Source: Pseudomonadota bacterium
GTDB lineage: Bacteria > Pseudomonadota > Gammaproteobacteria > Beggiatoales > Beggiatoaceae
Assembly: GCA_041161065.1 (NCBI GenBank)
Contig: JBEAVE010000006.1
Location: forward strand, 58,912-122,911
Length of the DNA: 64,000 nt
Direction: 5' to 3'
This document shows positions 4,689-20,856 of the stretch, piece after piece; within the stretch, counting starts at the first letter, position 1; each line of letters starts with the position of its first letter. Below the pieces are notes generated by a model. The model ran no database searches and was not told the origin of the DNA. It saw nothing but the letters and a program-made list of their open reading frames with translations. Made by a program: the position numbers and the translations under genes.

Positions 4689-6062
4689 ATGAAAAAATAC
4701 CATAAGAAAATACTTGTATTAACGCTGTGCGCAGCCCCGACGTGGGTTTTTGCAACCAACGGTATGAATTTAGAAGGTTTTGGCGCGACCGCACGCGGAA
4801 TGGGCGGCGCATCAATGGCTTACGACAACGGGCTCGCCGCTATGATGAACAATCCCTCCACCTTAGGATTTCTCGAAGAAGGCAAACAACGCGTCGATTT
4901 GGGATTGGGTTTTTTGGCTCCAAATGTCAAAAGTTCCATCGGCGGCATGAGCAGCAAATCCTCTGCCGATAAATTCTGGATGATGCCCGCAGGCATGGGC
5001 TGGGCGGCGAAACAAAACGGCTACACTTACGGGGTCGGGCTGTTTGCGCAGGGCGGCATGGGCACAGAATACGACAGCACACCGTTAGGGTTAGGCGCGG
5101 GCACGACCCGTTCGGAAGTCGGCGTGGGGCGTTTAATTTTCCCGTTGGTCTATGATCTTGATCCACAACTCAAACTCGGCGCATCGTTGGACGTAATTTG
5201 GGCGACAATGGATTTGCAAATGGCAATGACCGGACAAATGCTCGGGTCGATGATGCAGCGCGGCGCGGGAATGGCGATTGCCGCCCCGGGTGAAGCGACC
5301 GGTTCTTTAACCCAAGCGATGGGTTCAATGGGCATCAATCCAAGCTGGGCGCGTTTTGATTTCTCAAATAATAGCGATTTCCTCGGCGAAGCCAAAGGCG
5401 CGGGTTTAACGGGTAAATTAGGCGCAGTTTATCAAATCAACAAAGAACTCAGTTTAGGCGTAACCTATCATTTGAAAAGTTACATGAGTGATTTGAGCAC
5501 CAGCAATGCAAAATTAAGCATGAATGTGGGAGGAAATGTTCAAACATTAACGGGCGATTTGAAACTCAAAAACTTTGAATGGCCCGATACCTACGGCATT
5601 GGCATTTCTTATCGCCCAACCGACCGCTTAATGCTTGCCGCTGACATTAAACAAATTCGTTGGTCGAAAGTCATGGATAGTTTCAATATGGGATTCACTG
5701 CGTCAAATGCCGCTGAAAACGGACCATTTGCAGGTAAAACATTAGATGCCAAACTCTATCAAAATTGGGACGATCAAACCGTTTATTCTTTAGGTGCTTC
5801 TTATCGCTTAGATGATAAGTGGACAGCGCGCGTCGGGGCGAATCTGGCAAATAATCCTATCCCCAGTTCAACCCTTAATTTTCTTTTCCCCGCAACCATC
5901 AAAAATCATTACAGTGTGGGCGCAGGTTATGATCTGAGCAAAAACCAAAGCATTAACGCCGCGTTCATTTACGCACCAACGGTCGATCAAACCAGTGCAA
6001 GTGGCGTAACAACTTCACACAGTCAAATCAATTGGGAAATCATGTATTCTCAGCGTTTCTAA
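4689..6062 (+). CDS. outer-membrane transport protein, FadL/TodX/OmpP1 family
   Basis: Signal peptide. N-terminal hatch motif NLEGFGATARGMGGASMAYD..NNPSTLG. Alternating beta-strand pattern. C-terminal Phe. Confidence 0.8.
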   Translation: MKKYHKKILVLTLCAAPTWVFATNGMNLEGFGATARGMGGASMAYDNGLAAMMNNPSTLGFLEEGKQRVDLGLGFLAPNVKSSIGGMSSKSSADKFWMMPAGMGWAAKQNGYTYGVGLFAQGGMGTEYDSTPLGLGAGTTRSEVGVGRLIFPLVYDLDPQLKLGASLDVIWATMDLQMAMTGQMLGSMMQRGAGMAIAAPGEATGSLTQAMGSMGINPSWARFDFSNNSDFLGEAKGAGLTGKLGAVYQINKELSLGVTYHLKSYMSDLSTSNAKLSMNVGGNVQTLTGDLKLKNFEWPDTYGIGISYRPTDRLMLAADIKQIRWSKVMDSFNMGFTASNAAENGPFAGKTLDAKLYQNWDDQTVYSLGASYRLDDKWTARVGANLANNPIPSSTLNFLFPATIKNHYSVGAGYDLSKNQSINAAFIYAPTVDQTSASGVTTSHSQINWEIMYSQRF

Positions 6063-8973: not shown

Positions 8974-9270
8974 ATGGCTTTAGACGCTCAAACAGCTAGC
9001 GCGGTGGCTAGCATTTATTCCTCAACTGCCATCGGTGCAAGCATCATTTTGGCATTGGCTGGGATCGGTTCCGCATTGGGGTGGGGTTTGATTTGTGCGA
9101 AATATCTCGAAGGGATTGCCCGCCAACCCGAGTTACGCGCCCAATTAATGGGACAAATGCTCTTTACGGGTGGTTTAATGGAAGCGTTCCCGATGATCGT
9201 ATTAGGTTTGTCGATGTGGTTTGTGACAGCTAATCCGTTTGTCAGTGCATTTTTGGCTGGCTTGAAATAA
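8974..9270 (+). CDS. atpE: F0F1 ATP synthase subunit c
   Basis: Hairpin proteolipid with loop ARQPE and carboxylate in GGLMEAFPMIVLG. At 98 aa it is longer than the E. coli subunit. Confidence 0.9.
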   Translation: MALDAQTASAVASIYSSTAIGASIILALAGIGSALGWGLICAKYLEGIARQPELRAQLMGQMLFTGGLMEAFPMIVLGLSMWFVTANPFVSAFLAGLK

Positions 9271-9799: not shown

Positions 9800-10348
9800 A
9801 TGGCAGAACTTGCAACACTTGCTCGTCCTTACGCTGAAGCGGTTTTTCAACTGGCGGTCAAAGCGGACAATCTTGCGCAATGGTCAGCATTGCTCGATTT
9901 TTTAAGCAACACGGTGCAAGACCCCCAAATGGTTGCCTTAACCGCTAATCCTAGCGTCGATAAAGCAACCGTCGCCAACTTTCTATGCGAACTTTGCGCC
10001 GCACAGCCTTCTTTGGCTTTTGATGAACAAGGCAAAAATTTTATCCATCTGCTAACTGCAAATCACCGATTGGCAGTTATCCCACCCCTTTTCAAACAAT
10101 TTGAAACGCACCGAGCCGCTCACGAAAACTACTTGAAAATCAGTTTAGTATCGGCATACGAGGTTTCCCCAGAACAAGAAGCGAGCATCGAAGCTATGCT
10201 CGAAAAACGTTTTGGTAAAAAAACAGAACTCGATATTTCTGTCGACCAAAGTTTGATTGGCGGTTGGGTGGTGCGTACCGATAACCAAGTCATCGATATG
10301 TCGGTGCGCGGGCGGCTTCAACAATTAGCAGCCGAATTGCACGGTTAG
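9800..10348 (+). CDS. atpH: F0F1 ATP synthase subunit delta
   Basis: ARPYAEAVF N-terminus and OSCP-like length. Operon position fits. Confidence 0.9.
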   Translation: MAELATLARPYAEAVFQLAVKADNLAQWSALLDFLSNTVQDPQMVALTANPSVDKATVANFLCELCAAQPSLAFDEQGKNFIHLLTANHRLAVIPPLFKQFETHRAAHENYLKISLVSAYEVSPEQEASIEAMLEKRFGKKTELDISVDQSLIGGWVVRTDNQVIDMSVRGRLQQLAAELHG

Positions 10349-10418
10349 GGGTAAAACACCCCAATTGCCTGCGGTCAAAACCGTCGGCAAGTCCCTATAA
10401 CAAGGCTTTTGAGAGATT

Positions 10419-11963
10419 ATGATGCAGCTAAATCCCTCTGAAATCAGTGAACTGATTAAGAAAAAAATTCAAGATTATGCGTTAACCACCCAAGCGCGCA
10501 GTGAAGGCATGGTGGTCAGCGTTACCGACGGTATTGTGCGTATTCATGGGCTTGCCGATGCGTTGCAAGGCGAAATGCTAGAATTTCCCAACAATACCTT
10601 CGGCATGGCGTTGAACTTAGAACGCGATTCCGTCGGCGCAGTTATTTTAGGTCCTTACGAACACATCACGGAAGGCGACTGGGTCAGATGTACCGGTAAA
10701 GTATTGGAAGTCCCCGTCGGTCCCGAATTATTGGGGCGCGTGGTCAATTCGTTGGGCGTGCCCATCGATGGCAAAGGTCCTGTCAATACCAAATTATCCG
10801 CACCAATCGAAAAGGTTGCGCCCGGTGTTATTACCCGTCAATCCGTGAGTCAGCCTGTTCAAACCGGCTTGAAAGCGATTGATACCATGGTGCCAATCGG
10901 ACGCGGACAACGCGAATTAATCATCGGCGACCGTCAAACCGGTAAAACCGCCCTCGCGGTCGATGCCATCATCAACCAAAAAGACACTGGCGTAAAATGT
11001 ATTTACGTGGCGGTCGGTCAAAAAGCGTCTTCTATCGCCAACGTGGTGCGTAAATTAGAAGAACACGGCGCAATGGCTCACACGATTGTGGTCGCCGCTT
11101 CCGCTTCTGATCCCGCGCCAATGCAATTTATCGCGCCTTATGTGGGTTGTTCGATGGGCGAATATTTCCGCGATCGCGGCGAAGATGCGTTGATCGTTTA
11201 TGATGATTTAACCAAGCAAGCATGGGCGTATCGCCAAGTTTCCTTATTATTACGTCGTCCTCCCGGTCGTGAAGCCTATCCCGGTGACGTTTTCTACTTA
11301 CATTCCCGTTTGTTGGAGCGTTCCGCACGAATCAACGCAGCGCAAGTGGAAAAATTAACCAACGGCGAAGTGAAAGGTAAAACCGGTTCTTTAACCGCCT
11401 TACCCATCATCGAAACCCAAGCGGGCGACGTGTCTGCATTCGTTCCGACCAACGTCATTTCGATTACGGATGGACAAATCTTTTTAGAAACCGATTTGTT
11501 CAACTCAGGCATTCGCCCAGCGATTAACGCGGGTTTGTCGGTTTCACGGGTCGGTGGTGCTGCACAAACCAAAATCATCAAAAAACTGGGCGGCGGTGTG
11601 CGTTTAAGTTTGGCGCAATATCGTGAATTAGCGGCGTTTGCGCAGTTTGCTTCGGATTTAGATGATACGACTCGCAAACAAATCGAACGGGGTCGTCGCG
11701 TCACTGAGTTGATGAAACAAAAACAATATTCGCCTTTAACAGTGGGTGAAATGGCGGTGTCGTTGTTTGCCGTTGATCGGGGTTATTTGGACGATGTGGA
11801 CGTGAAAAAAGTGGGCGATTTCGAAGCCGCTTTACACAATCACATGCGCACGAATTATAAGGTGCTGATCCACAAAGTAAATACCTCTGGCGATTTTAAC
11901 GATGAGATCGAAGCGGAGTTTAGAAAAGCTCTCGACGATTTCAAAGCCAACCATACTTGGTAA
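10419..11963 (+). CDS. atpA: F0F1 ATP synthase subunit alpha
   Basis: Walker [10 protein letters not shown]. Highly conserved alpha-subunit sequence throughout. Confidence 0.97.
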
Positions 11964-14937: not shown

Positions 14938-16359
14938 TTAAGCAGTTTCTTCAGATTCCACTTCCATGCCTAACTCTTTGATTTTGCGGGTGACGGTATT
15001 TCTTCCCCAACCCAATAGTTTTGCGGCTTCTTGTCGCCGTCCTCCCGTAAATTGTAATGCCGTATCAATGAGTATTTTCTCAAAACGTGGGGCGGCTTCG
15101 TTTAATAAATCTTTACAACCGGAATGCAAGCGTTGTTCTGCCCAACGTCGTAAAAGTTGTTCCCAATCGTGGGTTTCTGAGGAAGAAGATTTTGAGCGTA
15201 ATTCTGGAGGAAGATCATCGGGTAAAATATCCTGACCCGAAGCCATCACCGTTAGCCATCGACAAGTGTTTTGTAATTGCCGAACATTACCCGCCCAATC
15301 TAATTGACTTAAATAACGTTCTGTTTCGGGTTGAAGTTTTTTCATTTCTACGTCGAGTTCTTTTGCCGCAGAGTGAAGAAAATGCTTTGCTAATAAAGGA
15401 ATATCTTCACGTCTTTTTCTCAACGGTGGCAAATGAATTCTAATCACGTTCAAACGATGATACAAATCCTCACGAAACTTGCCTTCTTTAACTCGTTGCT
15501 CTAAATCTTGATGAGTGGCGGCAATGATTCTGACATCGACTTTCAAAGGCGTATGACCACCCACACGAAAGAACGTTCCGTCCGCTAAAACTCTTAACAA
15601 ACGGGTTTGTAATTCGGCGGGCATATCACCAATTTCATCTAAAAACAACGTCCCCGAATCGGCTTGTTCGAAACGCCCACGACGTTGTTGCAATGCGCCG
15701 GTAAATGCGCCGCGTTCGTGCCCAAACAGTTCAGATTCAAGGAGTTCGCGGGGAATTGCCGCCGTATTCAACGCAATAAATGGATTTTGGGCGCGCGGGC
15801 TGTGTCGATGCAGGGCTTGCGCGACTAATTCTTTGCCAGTCCCCGATTCGCCGGTGATTAATACCGTGATATTTGAACGACTTAACCGCCCAATTGCTCG
15901 AAACACTTCCTGCATTGCGGGCGCAGACCCAATAATTTCGCCGCTTTGTTGAATGGCTAACGCACTCGGGTCAGTTTCCTGCTGTTTGCGGCGATTGACC
16001 GCGCGTTGCACCAAATCCACCGCCTCATCGACATCAAAAGGTTTGGGCAAATACTCAAACGCCCCGCCCTGATACGACGCGACCGCCGACTCCAAATCCG
16101 AATACGCGGTCATCACAATCACCGGCACTTGCGGATAATGGTCGTTTAGGTGGCTCAAAAGGCTCAATCCGTCCATGCCCGGCATTCGAATATCCGTAAT
16201 CACCGCATCGGGCGCGGGTTTTGCCGAACGCTGAACCGCCAAATCGGCGCGCTCAAACACCGTCACATCGATGCCCGCTTGCGTGAGGGCTTTTTCCAAC
16301 ACCCATCGAATCGCCCGATCATCATCAATTACCCACACATGGTTCTTTTTCATTTTCAT
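14938..16359 (-). CDS. glnG: nitrogen regulation protein NR(I), sigma54-dependent response regulator NtrC
   Basis: REC domain (VIDDD, ITDIRMPGMDG). AAA+ sigma54-activator motifs GESGTGKE and GAFTGA. C-terminal Fis-type HTH. Confidence 0.9.
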   Translation of the reverse strand: MKMKKNHVWVIDDDRAIRWVLEKALTQAGIDVTVFERADLAVQRSAKPAPDAVITDIRMPGMDGLSLLSHLNDHYPQVPVIVMTAYSDLESAVASYQGGAFEYLPKPFDVDEAVDLVQRAVNRRKQQETDPSALAIQQSGEIIGSAPAMQEVFRAIGRLSRSNITVLITGESGTGKELVAQALHRHSPRAQNPFIALNTAAIPRELLESELFGHERGAFTGALQQRRGRFEQADSGTLFLDEIGDMPAELQTRLLRVLADGTFFRVGGHTPLKVDVRIIAATHQDLEQRVKEGKFREDLYHRLNVIRIHLPPLRKRREDIPLLAKHFLHSAAKELDVEMKKLQPETERYLSQLDWAGNVRQLQNTCRWLTVMASGQDILPDDLPPELRSKSSSSETHDWEQLLRRWAEQRLHSGCKDLLNEAAPRFEKILIDTALQFTGGRRQEAAKLLGWGRNTVTRKIKELGMEVESEETA

Positions 16360-16364
16360 TCAAC

Positions 16365-16481
16365 CTAATGTTCTATATTTAAGTCGGGAATCCTAGCCAT
16401 TTCTTTGACGTTATTGGTAACAAGAATATAACGTTCTATTAAAACATGCTCAGCAATCCACAAATCATTTGTACCAATCGG
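16365..16481 (-). pseudogene. truncated vapC (PIN-domain toxin) C-terminal remnant
   Basis: My own translation of the minus strand gives PIGTNDLWIAEHVLIERYILVTNNVKEMARIPDLNIEH followed by a stop. This matches the typical VapC C-terminus (IG.NDLWIAA.A......LVT.N..EF.R.P.L). There is no start codon or N-terminal two thirds. It starts right after the RM gene stop and ends 5 nt before the ntrC ATG. Confidence 0.6.
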
Positions 16482-16489
16482 TTTTCCTT

Positions 16490-19400
16490 TTATTGAATAG
16501 GAAAATCGCTAATCGTTTCATCGATTTTTTTCATAAGTTGTTGGGTTTTTGTTATCGCTGCTAAAATATACAAATAATGCGCGCAATCTTCATAACTTAA
16601 AATAAGATTTTTACGATCTTTTAACCATTTTTGACACACTTGATAACCTCCAATATGAAATCCCCAAATATCTAGTTTTACATTATCAAAATACTGGGTT
16701 TTGTTGATATAAACTTTGTCATTTTTGTATTCCACTTTCTCGACAATATTATTTCCTTCAATTGGGAAATTATGTTCATAATCCAGATCGGTTTGCATTA
16801 AATGTAAATTTACCAGTTGTTCTCCAAAAATAGCTAATTGTTGAAATAAATTTTTATCATTCGTTAAAGGCAAACGTGGAAAATCCATTTTGAGAAACTC
16901 TGCATATCTTTTTCTATACATTGGGCTATGAAATATCGCATACATATAATGAAAGACATCTAACGCGCTAATTGTTTGTTTGAAATCACCTTTATTTTCA
17001 GAAATAAATTGTAACTTTAATTTAGTTTCTAATTCCACAATAAACTCAGGCGAAAAATTAGGTTTTCTCGGTAATTCTTTATGATGTCCATTACCGCTCC
17101 CATTTCCATTCACAAAATGATCTTTCTCTGAAGACGAAAGATAAAGTGGAAAGAAATTATTACCGCCACGTCTAAATAAATTAAGTTCTGTCATTATGTT
17201 TGAACAGAAGATTATATCCCATTCATTAGAACCAACAACTTGACCTGCTCGTCTAACAGCTAATCCTAAGTTACTTTCTTGCAATATATGTTGCATAACT
17301 TCATATCGCGGTCTCGTTACAACTTGCCCATCATAAATAATGTAATTTATATCAAATGGGCGATAAAGAATTGGTTTAATAACATCTTCTTTTAGATTAT
17401 GTTTTTTAGCCAATTTTTTAGCTATTTGGTAATCAGATGTAATGGTTTCTTTATCTTGTCCAGTTACAATTCCAACCGAATTAATCGGCATCATATCGGT
17501 AACTTTCCAACCTTTTTCATATTCACTTAACAAATCAATATTTTGAGGAACAAATAAATAAAATGGCGATTGTGGTTTCAAAATTGTCCAATCAGTTGTT
17601 TTCAAATCGTTTGCAGATAACCACTGATATTTTGTTTTACGTTCACCATACAAATGCGCATGATAAACGGTCGCAATTTTGTTTTTTCTTTGTTGATGCT
17701 TAATAAAAATGCCAACCGCTACACCTTGTTGAATATCAAAAACATTTTTATCGTTTGAACCATCGGGAGATTGTTCTTTTTTCTTTGAATTTCCATGCAA
17801 ATCTAAAATGTAAATTTCATCAAAATCTTCCATCAATGATTGACGCATTCCTCTAAAAGTTGGATTATCCAAATAACCATGATTTGTTACAAATCCTAAA
17901 ACGCCATAACCTGTTTGTTGAATGCGCCAATGCGCAAAGCGAATAAATTTCACATAATCGTCATTTAACCATTTGGGATTTCTTTCATTCAAAGATTGAC
18001 CATCGACCATAAAATAATTGGCTTGATTTCCTATCCCACGCAATAAATCAGAAATCCATTCACCCGTATTTGCAGAATGTCCAGAATAAGGCGGATTTCC
18101 TAAAATAACCATTACAGGAGATTCTGCTTTAACAAAACTTGCTGCATTTGCTTCGTTTGATAGCCATTTTGCTAACAAAGTTTCTTCATTTTCATGCGGT
18201 TTATCTAAGGTATTAGTTAAGAAAATATTTAATCGTTCATTGCTCTTAAAATCATAACCATATTCTTTTAATTGCAAACCTAATTTCATATGCGCAACGG
18301 TATAAGCCGCCATCAATAATTCAAAACCATGCAGTCGTGGTAATAAATGCTTTGAAACATAATCCGACCACATTCCTTTATTATTTTTGAATTGCTCAAA
18401 TATTTTTGCAATGACTGAATAAAGAAAAGTACCTGTTCCCGTTGCTGGATCGAGGATTTGAACTCGATGGGTTTTATCATCAATTTTTGAACTATCTGCT
18501 AAACCTTTTTTCAAATTAAATTTTTCTTTCAAAATCAAATCAACTGATCGCACAATATATGAAACAACGGGTTCTGGCGTGTAATAAACACCACGTATTT
18601 CTCGTAATTTAGGATTGTATTGGGCAAGAAATGTTTCGTAGAAATGAACCACGGGGTCTTCTTGGCGCGTTTGTTTGCCAAAATCGGCTAAAATTGCTCC
18701 AATATCTGCACGATTCAAAACGGCAACCAAATGCTCAACCATCCACACCAATCGTTCATCTAAATCAATTCCCGCGATTTGATTAAATAAGTTTCTCAAA
18801 AAAGGGTTGGTTTTTGGCAAATAAAATCCTGCATGAATTCGAGAAAAAGGTTGATTGAGTTCTGCACTACATTTTGCTGCAAATAATCCATAACAAATGG
18901 TTTGAGCAACCATATCGCTAAATTGTTCAATGGTCAGCGTATCAATTAAAACAATTCTAAAACTATCTAATTGGCTGTGTATATTGCCACGATTATCTTC
19001 ATTTTGATAAGCCAATTCAATAGAACGTTTGATTTCATTAGCAATATGTGCCATTTTAGCGGCAAGTTCTTCGGGTGTGCGTAAGGTTAAAATTTTTGAT
19101 TCAACAAAAGATTTGATTAAATTTTCAAAACGATTAAATTGATCTTTATTTATGGATAATTTCTTATTTTTAGAATCCCATGTTCCTAACACAACCGTCA
19201 TTTCAAGTTGTTTGTTTTTTTCTATAAACCAGCGAAATTCCAAATAATCGGTTAAAATCAAATTATTTAAGGCGGGTAAATAACGTTGGATTTGTTCTGA
19301 TTGCTCAGTTTTATCTAAATCAATTCCAATATCTTTTGCTTCAAGATGACCAATCGGTTCTTCCCCTTTCGCGATTTCAAAATCGGGCGATCCACATTGA

Positions 19401-19549
19401 ATTCGACGCGGTTCATTTGTAATGCGATAATCGGGTAAAAAGGCTTTCAAAAGCGCAAACAACGCGGGGCGATGCGTATGTTCAGTAGCATTTCCAATTT
19501 GTAAATCATGTTCTATTTGATTTAAATAAGTTTCTATGGCGTTTAACAT
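16490..19549 (-). CDS. MmeI-like single-polypeptide type IIG/IIL restriction-modification enzyme (PD-ExK nuclease + gamma-class N6-adenine methyltransferase + specificity domain)
   Basis: N-terminal GSPDFEI...LEAKD...DLDK...LILTDYLEFRWF follows the MmeI-type D-x(n)-E-x-K nuclease pattern. Methyltransferase motif I is ILDPATGTGTFL and motif IV is GNPPYSG. C-terminal blocks FHYMYAIFHSPMYRKRYAEFLKMDFPRLPL and GGYQVCQKWLKDRK are as in type ISP/IIG specificity domains. The preferred start is ATG 19549 (MLNAIETYL), 1 nt after the ntrB stop. The longest ORF starts at 19621, inside ntrB. Confidence 0.75.
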   Translation of the reverse strand: MLNAIETYLNQIEHDLQIGNATEHTHRPALFALLKAFLPDYRITNEPRRIQCGSPDFEIAKGEEPIGHLEAKDIGIDLDKTEQSEQIQRYLPALNNLILTDYLEFRWFIEKNKQLEMTVVLGTWDSKNKKLSINKDQFNRFENLIKSFVESKILTLRTPEELAAKMAHIANEIKRSIELAYQNEDNRGNIHSQLDSFRIVLIDTLTIEQFSDMVAQTICYGLFAAKCSAELNQPFSRIHAGFYLPKTNPFLRNLFNQIAGIDLDERLVWMVEHLVAVLNRADIGAILADFGKQTRQEDPVVHFYETFLAQYNPKLREIRGVYYTPEPVVSYIVRSVDLILKEKFNLKKGLADSSKIDDKTHRVQILDPATGTGTFLYSVIAKIFEQFKNNKGMWSDYVSKHLLPRLHGFELLMAAYTVAHMKLGLQLKEYGYDFKSNERLNIFLTNTLDKPHENEETLLAKWLSNEANAASFVKAESPVMVILGNPPYSGHSANTGEWISDLLRGIGNQANYFMVDGQSLNERNPKWLNDDYVKFIRFAHWRIQQTGYGVLGFVTNHGYLDNPTFRGMRQSLMEDFDEIYILDLHGNSKKKEQSPDGSNDKNVFDIQQGVAVGIFIKHQQRKNKIATVYHAHLYGERKTKYQWLSANDLKTTDWTILKPQSPFYLFVPQNIDLLSEYEKGWKVTDMMPINSVGIVTGQDKETITSDYQIAKKLAKKHNLKEDVIKPILYRPFDINYIIYDGQVVTRPRYEVMQHILQESNLGLAVRRAGQVVGSNEWDIIFCSNIMTELNLFRRGGNNFFPLYLSSSEKDHFVNGNGSGNGHHKELPRKPNFSPEFIVELETKLKLQFISENKGDFKQTISALDVFHYMYAIFHSPMYRKRYAEFLKMDFPRLPLTNDKNLFQQLAIFGEQLVNLHLMQTDLDYEHNFPIEGNNIVEKVEYKNDKVYINKTQYFDNVKLDIWGFHIGGYQVCQKWLKDRKNLILSYEDCAHYLYILAAITKTQQLMKKIDETISDFPIQ

Positions 19550-19550
19550 A

Positions 19551-20636
19551 TTAAGTTGTAATGGGTAATGAAATCGTAAAAACGGTTTTAGTGGGGCGAC
19601 TTTCACAAGAAATTGTTCCACCGTTTCTATGGACTAAATTTTGAGCAATTGTTAAACCTAACCCCGTTCCTTCGGCGCGTCCTGTCACCATTGGATAGAA
19701 AATATGCTCAAAAATTTCTTCTGGAATTCCCGGTCCATTATCTTGAATATCTACCCGCACCGCCATTTTGTGCAATTTATTATCTAATTTAACCCGATGT
19801 TCAATGCGCGTTCTTAACGTTAAAACGCCTTGTCCATTCATCGCTTGCACTGCATTTCTTAGCAAATTTAGAAATGCTTGGTGTAATTGATCGGGGTCAG
19901 CAAAAATATCTGGGACGCTCGGATCATAATCTTCAATGATTTCAATCAGTTCACCCGATTCATTGGTAATTAACTGCCGTCCTAAACATAAAACCTTATG
20001 AATATTAATCCATTCTTTGCGTGGAGGTGTTCGCGGTCCCAACATTCGGTCGAGCAAAGTCTGCAAACGATCCGCCTCGCCGATAATAATGTCAGTATAT
20101 TCACGCTGTTGCAGCGGAAGTTCGCGCGCCAACAATTGTGCCGCCCCGCGCAAACCGCCGAGTGGATTCTTGATTTCGTGCGCCAAACCCCGCAACAAAT
20201 TGTGCACCGCGCGCCGCCGCAACGACAAATCTTCCTCGCGCGTGAGTCGCAATTGTTGATCAACATTGACCATTTCCACCAAAAACGCATCAGGCGGAAT
20301 AATACCTAACCCGTTGTTATTGTTAGGATAAAAATGTGGGTTGCGAATAGGCGTAATGCTACAATCGACGGTCATTTGCGAACCGGTCAATGTCCCGATT
20401 TTCAAGCCATGTTCGGTGAGTGTGCGGGGCTCTGTTATAAGTCGTTGAAAACACGGACAATCAGGAAACAATATTTCCGCGTGCAAACCACAAACCTGAT
20501 TCGCGCTCAGTTGCAATAAAGTTTCGCCCGCCGGATTGATATATTGCAACGACAAATCACGATCAAACCACAAGACCGCCGTCATTAAATTGTCAAGAAT
20601 ACGCTGTGCAAGTTCCATAGAAGTTTTCACGGGCAA
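19551..20636 (-). CDS. glnL: nitrogen regulation sensor histidine kinase NtrB
   Basis: N-terminal PAS domain. H-box HEIKNPLGGLRGAAQLL. HATPase motifs DNGPGIP and GTGLGL. Confidence 0.9.
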   Translation of the reverse strand: MPVKTSMELAQRILDNLMTAVLWFDRDLSLQYINPAGETLLQLSANQVCGLHAEILFPDCPCFQRLITEPRTLTEHGLKIGTLTGSQMTVDCSITPIRNPHFYPNNNNGLGIIPPDAFLVEMVNVDQQLRLTREEDLSLRRRAVHNLLRGLAHEIKNPLGGLRGAAQLLARELPLQQREYTDIIIGEADRLQTLLDRMLGPRTPPRKEWINIHKVLCLGRQLITNESGELIEIIEDYDPSVPDIFADPDQLHQAFLNLLRNAVQAMNGQGVLTLRTRIEHRVKLDNKLHKMAVRVDIQDNGPGIPEEIFEHIFYPMVTGRAEGTGLGLTIAQNLVHRNGGTISCESRPTKTVFTISLPITT

Positions 20637-20712
20637 ATTTTATACCGATTAAGTTTTAGGTTGTTTTTCAAAGAGATAGGTTCAATAACCATATCTTTTA
20701 TTTGAGATATTT

Positions 20713-20748
20713 TGCACTACTTTAGTTCAAATGCCTTATTATAGTGCA
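20713..20748 (-). promoter_or_regulatory. two adjacent NtrC-like binding sites upstream of ntrB
   Basis: TGCACTA-CTT-TAGTTCA (20713-20729) and TGCCTTA-TTA-TAGTGCA (20732-20748) resemble the enterobacterial NtrC site TGCACYA-N3-TGGTGCA. They lie 77-112 nt upstream of the ntrB start. Confidence 0.4.
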
Positions 20749-20856
20749 ATTAGGTTTTTATTTCGTAAAGAAAGGGGCTTTTAAAGAGGAAAACTGAAAC
20801 CCTTCCGCCGCCGTAAAATAAGGAGGAAATGATTTCATTAAATGGTGAGTTGTTCT

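Follow-up and report, generated by a model that had tools for sequence, protein, structure and literature searches.

The closest relative with a solved structure of the enzyme discussed here is DrdV (PDB 7LO5/7LVV), a Type IIL single-chain enzyme that recognises an asymmetric site, methylates one strand and cleaves at a fixed distance in a reaction that needs several bound sites (bioRxiv 10.1101/2021.01.06.425610). The ways in which restriction-modification (RM) genes move have also been described: they comprise insertion that duplicates a long stretch of the target, an established route for RM genes lacking a transposase, allelic substitution and, as previously found for Type IIG genes, replacement of the target-recognition domain (TRD) (Furuta et al. 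2010, PMC2853133). Defence genes further accumulate in hotspots flanked by core genes, often without recognisable mobile-element genes (PMC10121019). Here we describe an RM gene that lies between ntrB and ntrC, the genes of a nitrogen sensor kinase and its response regulator, in a stretch of 64,000 nucleotides (the window) from a bacterium of the Beggiatoaceae (Pseudomonadota; GenBank assembly GCA_041161065.1, contig JBEAVE010000006.1, positions 58,912 to 122,911 of the forward strand). The host is closely related to metagenome-assembled genomes of Thiomargarita sp. from sulfidic caves. Sequence comparison and structural modelling make it likely that the gene encodes a functional DrdV-like Type IIL/IIG RM enzyme and that it resides in a cargo hotspot between ntrB and ntrC of Thiomargarita-like Beggiatoaceae.

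A first-pass annotation of this DNA had proposed a single-chain enzyme that combines a nuclease, a gamma-class N6-methyladenine-forming methyltransferase and a TRD. This composition holds: all of the motifs that had been quoted are in place, and searches with hidden Markov models (HMM) agree with it. The gene and its predicted domains, the latter partly delimited on AlphaFold2 (AF2) models, are the following.

16490..19549, minus strand: DrdV-like Type IIL/IIG single-chain RM gene, 1019 aa (HMM, PDB sequence and fold searches)
19145..19549, minus strand: N-terminal PD-ExK nuclease domain, residues ~1-135 (invariant residues, AF2 domain model, Foldseek)
18665..19144, minus strand: all-helical connector, residues ~136-295 (AF2 secondary structure)
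17570..18664, minus strand: gamma-class N6-adenine DNA methyltransferase domain (Pfam N6_Mtase and MmeI_Mtase; invariant motifs)
16529..17464, minus strand: C-terminal TRD, Type_ISP_C, residues 696-1007 (Pfam PF18135, 9e-72)
17153..17461, minus strand: swapped core of the TRD, residues ~697-799 (block-wise alignment)

The nuclease motif PDFEI occupies residues 55-59 (19373-19387; P55-D56 at 19382-19387), LEAKD residues 69-73 (19331-19345; E70-x-K72 at 19334-19342) and DYLEFRW residues 101-107. Methyltransferase motif I, DPATGTGTF (residues 367-375, 18425-18451), stands ahead of motif IV, NPPY (residues 485-488, 18086-18097). In an alignment of 34 homologues, P55, D56, E70 and K72 are invariant, as are both methyltransferase motifs. 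Confirmation by HMM, whose failure the annotation had listed as a ground for refutation, was obtained from Pfam (Type_ISP_C, 9e-72; N6_Mtase, 2.7e-11; MmeI_Mtase, a weak match of 33.5 bits and 3.2e-08) and from the PADLOC model REase_MTase_IIG (PDLC03610, 5.3e-292); no specific NCBIfam model matches the protein. The TRD is fused in the same chain, and neither an S subunit gene nor another methyltransferase gene lies next to it, the neighbours being ntrB on one side and a vapC stub followed by ntrC on the other. For the nuclease domain, a separate AF2 model was built of residues 1-200 (predicted local distance difference test score, pLDDT, 85.6), replacing a poor full-length model. Its best Foldseek match is the nuclease domain of DrdV (7lvv_C; target-normalised template-modelling (TM) score 0.75, root-mean-square deviation 3.5), followed by Hjc-type PD-(D/E)xK nucleases. 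In this model beta-2 begins with PD and beta-3 ends with ExK, a placement that, compared by description only, agrees with what has been published for MmeI (D70/E80/K82, PMC2731913).

DrdV is also the best match in searches of PDB sequences, with E values of 2e-42 for the single sequence and 5.5e-61 for a profile of 34 sequences. The runners-up are LlaBIII (1.2e-40 and 1.2e-56, respectively) and LlaGI. These sequence matches are restricted to the methyltransferase and TRD, and the methyltransferase aligns to residues 282-625 of DrdV and 842-1173 of LlaBIII. A Foldseek search with the full-length model gives the same order at the top: DrdV (3.4e-27), Type ISP enzymes (~1e-20), MmeI (4e-7) and BrxX (1e-6). 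The protein resembles DrdV in size (1019 against 1029 aa), in the lack of an ATPase and in an identical domain order of nuclease, helical connector, methyltransferase and TRD, but the two are only ~18-19% identical and the relationship of the N-terminal domain is undetectable by sequence alone. By analogy with DrdV, we infer that the enzyme recognises an asymmetric site, modifies one strand and cleaves at a fixed distance when several sites are bound. One polypeptide would read the site through its C-terminal TRD, as the homology to DrdV and MmeI suggests, and methylation of one adenine on one strand would protect the host, with no ATPase and no translocation involved.

The label MmeI-like, given in the first-pass annotation, can be kept for the architecture and not for family membership. 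With the MmeI family of Type IIL enzymes (PMC2731913, PMC4833311) the protein shares its architecture, the presumed logic of one-strand modification, the occurrence as a solitary gene with no second methyltransferase and, going by the published description, the strand placement of PD and ExK. It differs in having no full-length sequence similarity and only the weak MmeI_Mtase match. MmeI (5HR4) is absent from the PDB sequence matches at E ≤ 0.01, with the single sequence and the profile alike, and there is no Pfam match to the TRD or N-terminal models of MmeI. Membership of the family has been defined by whole-length similarity to MmeI at E < 1e-20 (Morgan et al. 2009, PMC2731913), whereas MmeI was retrieved here by Foldseek only, at E = 4e-7 and TM 0.22-0.29, against 3e-27 for DrdV.

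The homologous methyltransferase-TRD module also raises the question whether this could be an ATP-dependent, translocating Type ISP enzyme like LlaGI or LlaBIII. The strong Type_ISP_C match, the homology to LlaBIII and LlaGI (E = 1e-40 to 1e-56) and the public names of relatives, "type ISP restriction/modification enzyme" from PGAP and "predicted helicase" from JGI, all point that way. However, the RecA-like ATPase/translocase that defines Type ISP is lacking, its place being taken by the connector, which is purely helical in the AF2 model and carries no ATPase motifs; neither Pfam nor NCBIfam detects a helicase or ATPase domain anywhere in the protein. With 1019 aa the chain is also shorter than the 1406-1578 aa of Type ISP enzymes, and alignments to LlaBIII begin at its residue ~836-842, past the ATPase, as do those to LlaGI. 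A Type ISP enzyme is hence hardly credible. A link to PglX/BrxX of BREX finds only distant fold similarity, with no brx neighbours at the locus. The best description of the protein, from its sequence and modelled structure, is that of a DrdV-like Type IIL/IIG enzyme that lacks an ATPase and has a methyltransferase-TRD module of the Type ISP kind. The PGAP and JGI names conflict with this domain content and may mislead automated counts of defence systems. With at least 8000 matches the family is very large; Beggiatoaceae account for many of these, and a single genome often has several. Three homologues (P0028, P0054 and P0064) share the methyltransferase-TRD part (66-72% identity over 61% of the query) and carry a different N-terminal module, PF04480 (DUF559) plus PF18741, which indicates, as far as the domain content goes, shuffling of the nuclease domain.

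The surroundings of the gene in the window are given below.

19547..19553, minus strand: junction TAA-T-ATG, i.e. ntrB stop, 1 nt and RM start (sequence)
19551..20618, minus strand: ntrB (glnL), nitrogen sensor histidine kinase, 355 aa (NCBIfam NF008293, 5.6e-96; Pfam PAS/HisKA/HATPase_c)
14938..16359, minus strand: ntrC (glnG), sigma-54-dependent response regulator (NCBIfam TIGR01818, 1.2e-224)
16365..16487, minus strand: vapC/PIN toxin gene reduced to a 3' stub of its final ~40 codons and TAG (tblastn versus plasmids)
20713..20749, minus strand: conserved block TTGCACTATAAT...GTGCA upstream of ntrB (five-locus alignment with diverging flanks)

Both flanking genes pass equivalog tests (NtrB, NF008293, 321.8 bits against a cut-off of 240; NtrC, TIGR01818, 746 bits against 558.6). 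Direct adjacency of ntrB and ntrC is not found in the window, where 3191 nt on one strand separate the ntrB stop from the ntrC start, in agreement with the ~3.2 kb reported earlier. The RM open reading frame (ORF), 16490-19549, is intact and encodes 1019 aa from ATG 19549. An entry in the ORF list (16490..19621, minus strand) begins at an in-frame GTG at 19621 that overlaps ntrB; the conserved start is ATG 19549, and the N-termini of homologues share the pattern M-x-N-x-I-x-x-Y-L with the 1019-aa form. With the ntrB stop TAA at 19551-19553 and the RM ATG at 19547-19549, the gap is 1 nt, as had been noticed in the first pass, and this arrangement is conserved in five loci. An NtrB of 361 aa starting at TTG gave no record in an exact-match look-up; gene callers and relatives use the ATG start of the 355-aa form. 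ntrC has an ATG at 16359 and another, in the same frame, at 16353 (ATGAAAATGAAAAAG); relatives start at the second, which gives 471 aa.

As the window stems from a metagenome assembly, a JGI contig (source sample 3300045532), a chimera has to be considered. However, an identical protein in identical context occurs in the independent Logan assembly SRR30127085, and other samples show the ntrB-RM junction again, in assemblies from NCBI, JGI and Logan. Since independent assemblies show the same arrangement, it is not an assembly artefact, and the probability of a chimera is next to negligible.

Comparison of the ntrB-ntrC spacer with that of relatives, given below with the identity of their NtrB to that of the window, shows what the locus looks like with and without the gene.

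L004 (Thiomargarita sp.), NtrB 64%: spacer empty, 30 nt
L020, NtrB 36%: spacer empty, ~34 nt
L017, NtrB 90%: antitoxin and PIN pair only, RM gene absent
L018, NtrB 90%: another antitoxin and PIN pair only, RM gene absent
L003, NtrB 90%: RM gene at TAA-T-ATG, contig stops inside the RM gene
L011 and L012, NtrB 90%: RM gene and a third antitoxin/PIN pair that abuts the ntrC ATG
L010, NtrB 92%: RM gene, toxin-antitoxin (TA) pair of the L017 type, duplicated ntrC 5' end and a further module
Further module of L010: two copies of a miniature inverted-repeat transposable element (MITE), a DUF2281 gene and a decayed TA pair of the L018 type
L016, NtrB 93%: Type II methyltransferase and endonuclease exactly at TAA-T-ATG, then the RM gene
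Window, NtrB 100%: RM gene and, from a fourth vapC type, the final ~40 codons

The junction comparison suggested in the first-pass annotation thus finds ntrB and ntrC adjacent in L004 and L020 and an RM gene that is not universal. The claim that the gene is inserted between ntrB and ntrC stands, given the empty spacers of L004 and L020 and the lack of the gene in L017 and L018; the idea of a one-off recent event does not. The ancestral arrangement would have been ntrB followed by ntrC with nothing between. The RM gene is kept at the site in at least three lineages that are ~15% apart in ntrB nucleotides. The TAA-T-ATG junction is identical in L003, L010, L011 and L012, and L016 uses the same ATG for its Type II methyltransferase. 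In this complete Type II system (L016, 3657-5626), an N6_N4 methyltransferase (PADLOC, 3e-138) is paired with an endonuclease of 369 aa (PADLOC, 5e-155), so that two RM systems lie between ntrB and ntrC in that locus. The cargo amounts to 0.6-4.7 kb, its junctions measure 0-25 nt, and all six to seven independent units are co-oriented with ntrBC, for which the chance would be 2^-6 to 2^-7, or ~0.01, if orientation were random. The outer neighbours differ (ATP synthase in the window, citrate synthase in L010, IGPS in L011) and the ntrB-RM-...-ntrC block is kept, so the block is older than these rearrangements.

On these comparisons, a two-component operon harbours a small hotspot of defence and TA genes in its ntrB-ntrC spacer. 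This hotspot resembles the core-gene-flanked hotspots of E. coli (#37) and P. aeruginosa (PMC10121019) in having variable defence genes between conserved core genes, but it is much smaller (0.6-4.7 kb), lies within an operon and, in the loci seen, has no cargo other than RM and TA genes. What is new is the site, which lies within a two-component operon and has minimal junctions, strictly co-oriented cargo and a putatively coupled start. No integrase or transposase was called in the ntrB-ntrC loci examined. Scans with Rfam and for tRNA genes found nothing around the site, which is therefore not a tRNA-linked integration site. Low GC content was considered as a sign of foreign origin: the RM gene has a GC of 0.326 and a GC at third codon positions (GC3) of 0.227, below ntrBC, but composition is not diagnostic since many other genes of the window have GC3 values of 0.22-0.30.

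The RM gene appears to be under purifying selection. Its ratio of nonsynonymous to synonymous substitution rates (dN/dS) is 0.03-0.09 for codons 1-580 against same-site orthologues, and that of ntrB 0.05-0.11; by this measure the gene is selectively maintained, and with an ORF that is uninterrupted in six assemblies it is probably functional. Per 40-column alignment block, identity to the homologues P0002-P0005 is 85-100% outside the TRD core; only P0002, called from an upstream start, departs from this, in the first block. Within the core it drops to 5-50%, and the core is unalignable with that of same-locus orthologues. The window's core is instead ~74% identical in nucleotides to paralogues elsewhere (L014 and P0007, the latter in a defence-island-like context) that carry a short TRD allele. 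At this one locus there are three TRD alleles, one (A) in the window, a second (B) in L003 and L011 and a third (C) in L010, which fits diversification of specificity. In L014 (1-8075) two RM paralogues of the same family lie 3.9 kb apart, separated by AAA_15/DUF3696 ATPase, HTH/Peptidase_M78 and DUF3368 genes, an arrangement reminiscent of a defence island. The TRD allele closest to that of the window is borne by one of the two paralogues.

A solitary gene of this kind in a regulatory operon might also encode an orphan, regulatory methyltransferase with an inactive nuclease, serving nitrogen-dependent epigenetic regulation instead of defence, and some MmeI homologues indeed have no nuclease activity (PMC2731913). 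We consider this very unlikely. The PD...ExK residues are invariant in all 34 homologues, the predicted nuclease fold matches the active DrdV domain, and it is the nuclease-plus-methyltransferase part that gives the dN/dS of 0.03-0.09. Moreover, swapping of TRDs between alleles is typical of defence enzymes, and the other cargo at the site likewise consists of RM and TA genes.

The end of the RM gene at 16490 leaves 130 nt (16360-16489) before ntrC. This stretch, which the first-pass annotation had treated as spacer, turned out to hold what is left of a vapC toxin gene, a 3' stub. The translation of the stub is 60% identical to annotated C-termini of VapC (E = 7e-8; more than 5000 records, tblastn against plasmids); a Pfam scan of its 40 aa gave no match, and a complete PIN domain with N-terminal acidic residues is not present. 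In the window, deletion has removed the antitoxin gene and, from the toxin, its N-terminal two-thirds, while L010, L011 and L012 have intact antitoxin and PIN pairs at the same position. A TA cassette would thus have decayed to the vapC stub. The TA promoter region is missing as well, the 130-nt stub being all that precedes ntrC. The native sequence upstream of ntrC, AAAGGTAAGAACAA, is present in L010, L017 and L018 and is replaced in the window by vapC-stub sequence, so that the ribosome-binding region of ntrC has been remodelled by the cargo. The 8 nt past the RM stop (AAAGGA...) resemble the Shine-Dalgarno (SD) region of the L011 antitoxin gene.

How cargo arrived is suggested by two other loci. 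Paralogues of the RM gene occupy a second conserved site, between VWA and Fer4_5 genes, in L013 (5739-9216, 75% aa identity) and L023 (4001-7186, 71%). The L013 paralogue is preceded by 27-33 nt of the 3' tail of ntrB ahead of its ATG and bracketed by a 62-nt direct repeat (5739-5800 and 9156-9216); it probably arose by copying from the ntrBC site. In L010, the second module (9871-10800) is bracketed by ~33 nt from the 5' end of ntrC that are present twice (9871-9903 and 10768-10800). Inside this module, two 151-nt MITE-like copies (9965-10115 and 10556-10706), 99% identical and with 17-nt terminal inverted repeats ACCCGAGTTCGGGATAA, interrupt the DUF2281 gene and the decayed PIN gene; this MITE is not found in the window. 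The duplications in L013 and L010 look like traces of insertion that duplicated a long stretch of the target. Such flanking duplications occur only in these two loci, and a search for direct repeats around the RM gene in the window gave only short chance matches.

The RM gene would have been captured straight after the ntrB stop and vapBC-type TA cassettes ahead of ntrC. Later cargo exchange, gain and deletion would have followed, probably by illegitimate insertion with target duplication and then by homologous recombination through the conserved flanks. All three forms of mobility listed by Furuta et al. (2010, PMC2853133) have their likeness here, in the 62-nt and ~33-nt duplications, the variable cargo and the swapped TRD core. 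The differences from those cases are that the site lies in an operon, between a sensor kinase gene and that of its cognate regulator, and that co-orientation is strict and the start codon putatively coupled.

Regarding expression, ntrC is most likely still transcribed by read-through from the ntrB promoter, because all cargo is co-oriented and the junctions measure 0-25 nt. Translation of the RM gene would most likely be low and proceed by termination and reinitiation at TAA-T-ATG, and expression of the gene would then track that of ntrBC. Read-through and coupling are favoured by the conservation of this junction and by the junctions being free of terminator-like sites in the window, L010, L011 and L017. 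No SD sequence precedes its ATG; the duplex with the anti-SD, at +1.9 kcal/mol, is the weakest of 39 ORFs. Upstream of ntrB, the conserved block at 20713-20749 could, from its conservation, be a promoter/operator of the operon together with a second conserved block that was seen at ~20639-20671. The TGCAC/GTGCA half-sites of the former recall NtrC sites, with a spacing that is not canonical. A scan for the sigma-54 consensus gave 31 matches against 36.5 expected, none of them upstream of ntrB or ntrC. The arrangement of the genes makes co-transcription, translational coupling and control by nitrogen plausible.

It is also conceivable, if rather unlikely, that the RM gene has a promoter of its own and that ntrC is driven from the 3' end of the RM gene or from the vapC stub, in which case the spacer would be a neutral landing site without any link to nitrogen. 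TA cassettes usually bear their own autoregulated promoters, and those of the sister loci could drive ntrC. The L013 paralogue has a 200-nt leader with TTTACA-18-TATAAT, and sigma-70-like matches are found within the coding strand of the RM gene. On the other hand, a 1-nt junction leaves no room for a promoter, which would have to lie within the coding sequence of ntrB, and five loci keep this junction, which another cassette uses again in L016. The minus strand of 16360-16560 holds no promoter-like match, and the deletion in the window took away the TA promoter region.

Several observations weigh against a functional enzyme that is expressed by read-through from the ntrB promoter. Scans for sigma-70 promoters and terminators in the window, L010, L011 and L017 gave counts at or below shuffled expectation, with none at the junctions, and counts at chance level say little against an internal promoter for ntrC or the RM gene; the sigma-70-like matches inside the RM gene, several in number, belong here too. 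About 60% of the crude ORF starts in the window likewise have no clear SD, so that its lack before the RM gene is weak evidence for coupling. As to the enzyme itself, the full-length AF2 model is poor (pLDDT 64), its TM-scores of ~0.3 being uninformative beyond ranking. The TRD allele of the window is ~35 residues shorter than in most relatives, and its activity is assumed by analogy with the similar full-length allele in P0007. Finally, synonymous divergence (dS) between the window and other loci is lower for the RM gene (0.40-0.45) than for ntrB (0.69-0.92), while L003 and L011, with ntrB 99% identical, show the reverse (RM 0.176, ntrB 0.034). Due to this mismatch, the history of the gene is not simply vertical and the date of insertion is uncertain. 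The dS values point to allelic exchange instead of purely vertical descent, and those of L003 and L011 suggest that recombination between closely related lineages has replaced the RM allele.

A bolder possibility is that the spacer serves as a dedicated capture site, where promoterless RM and TA genes are driven by the nitrogen-regulated ntrBC promoter, integron-like but without an integrase. In chromosomal integron arrays, cassettes that look promoterless, many of them TA or defence genes, are likewise co-oriented, tightly packed and read from an upstream promoter, and the RM and TA genes behind the ntrB promoter resemble such an array. An actual integron was rejected as explanation, since junctions of 0-25 nt offer no room for attC sites and no integrase is present. 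We regard a dedicated capture site as improbable. If it existed, the cargo would be shielded from loss, because deletions and polar mutations would risk harming ntrB or ntrC, and levels of restriction enzyme and toxin would follow nitrogen status, for example to tune defence or DNA uptake in nitrogen starvation.

As an enzyme, the protein would be one more member of the very large DrdV-like Type IIL/IIG family, and it is the location that is unusual: cargo between the genes of a sensor kinase and its response regulator turns over among close relatives. The three TRD alleles at one locus form a ready set for mapping specificity determinants in a little-characterised branch of Type IIL enzymes. 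If ntrC is indeed reached by read-through, an anti-phage nuclease would be under nitrogen control and the ratio of NtrB to NtrC would depend on selfish cargo. The locus may then well offer a compact natural system for learning how mobile defence genes exploit the operons of their hosts.

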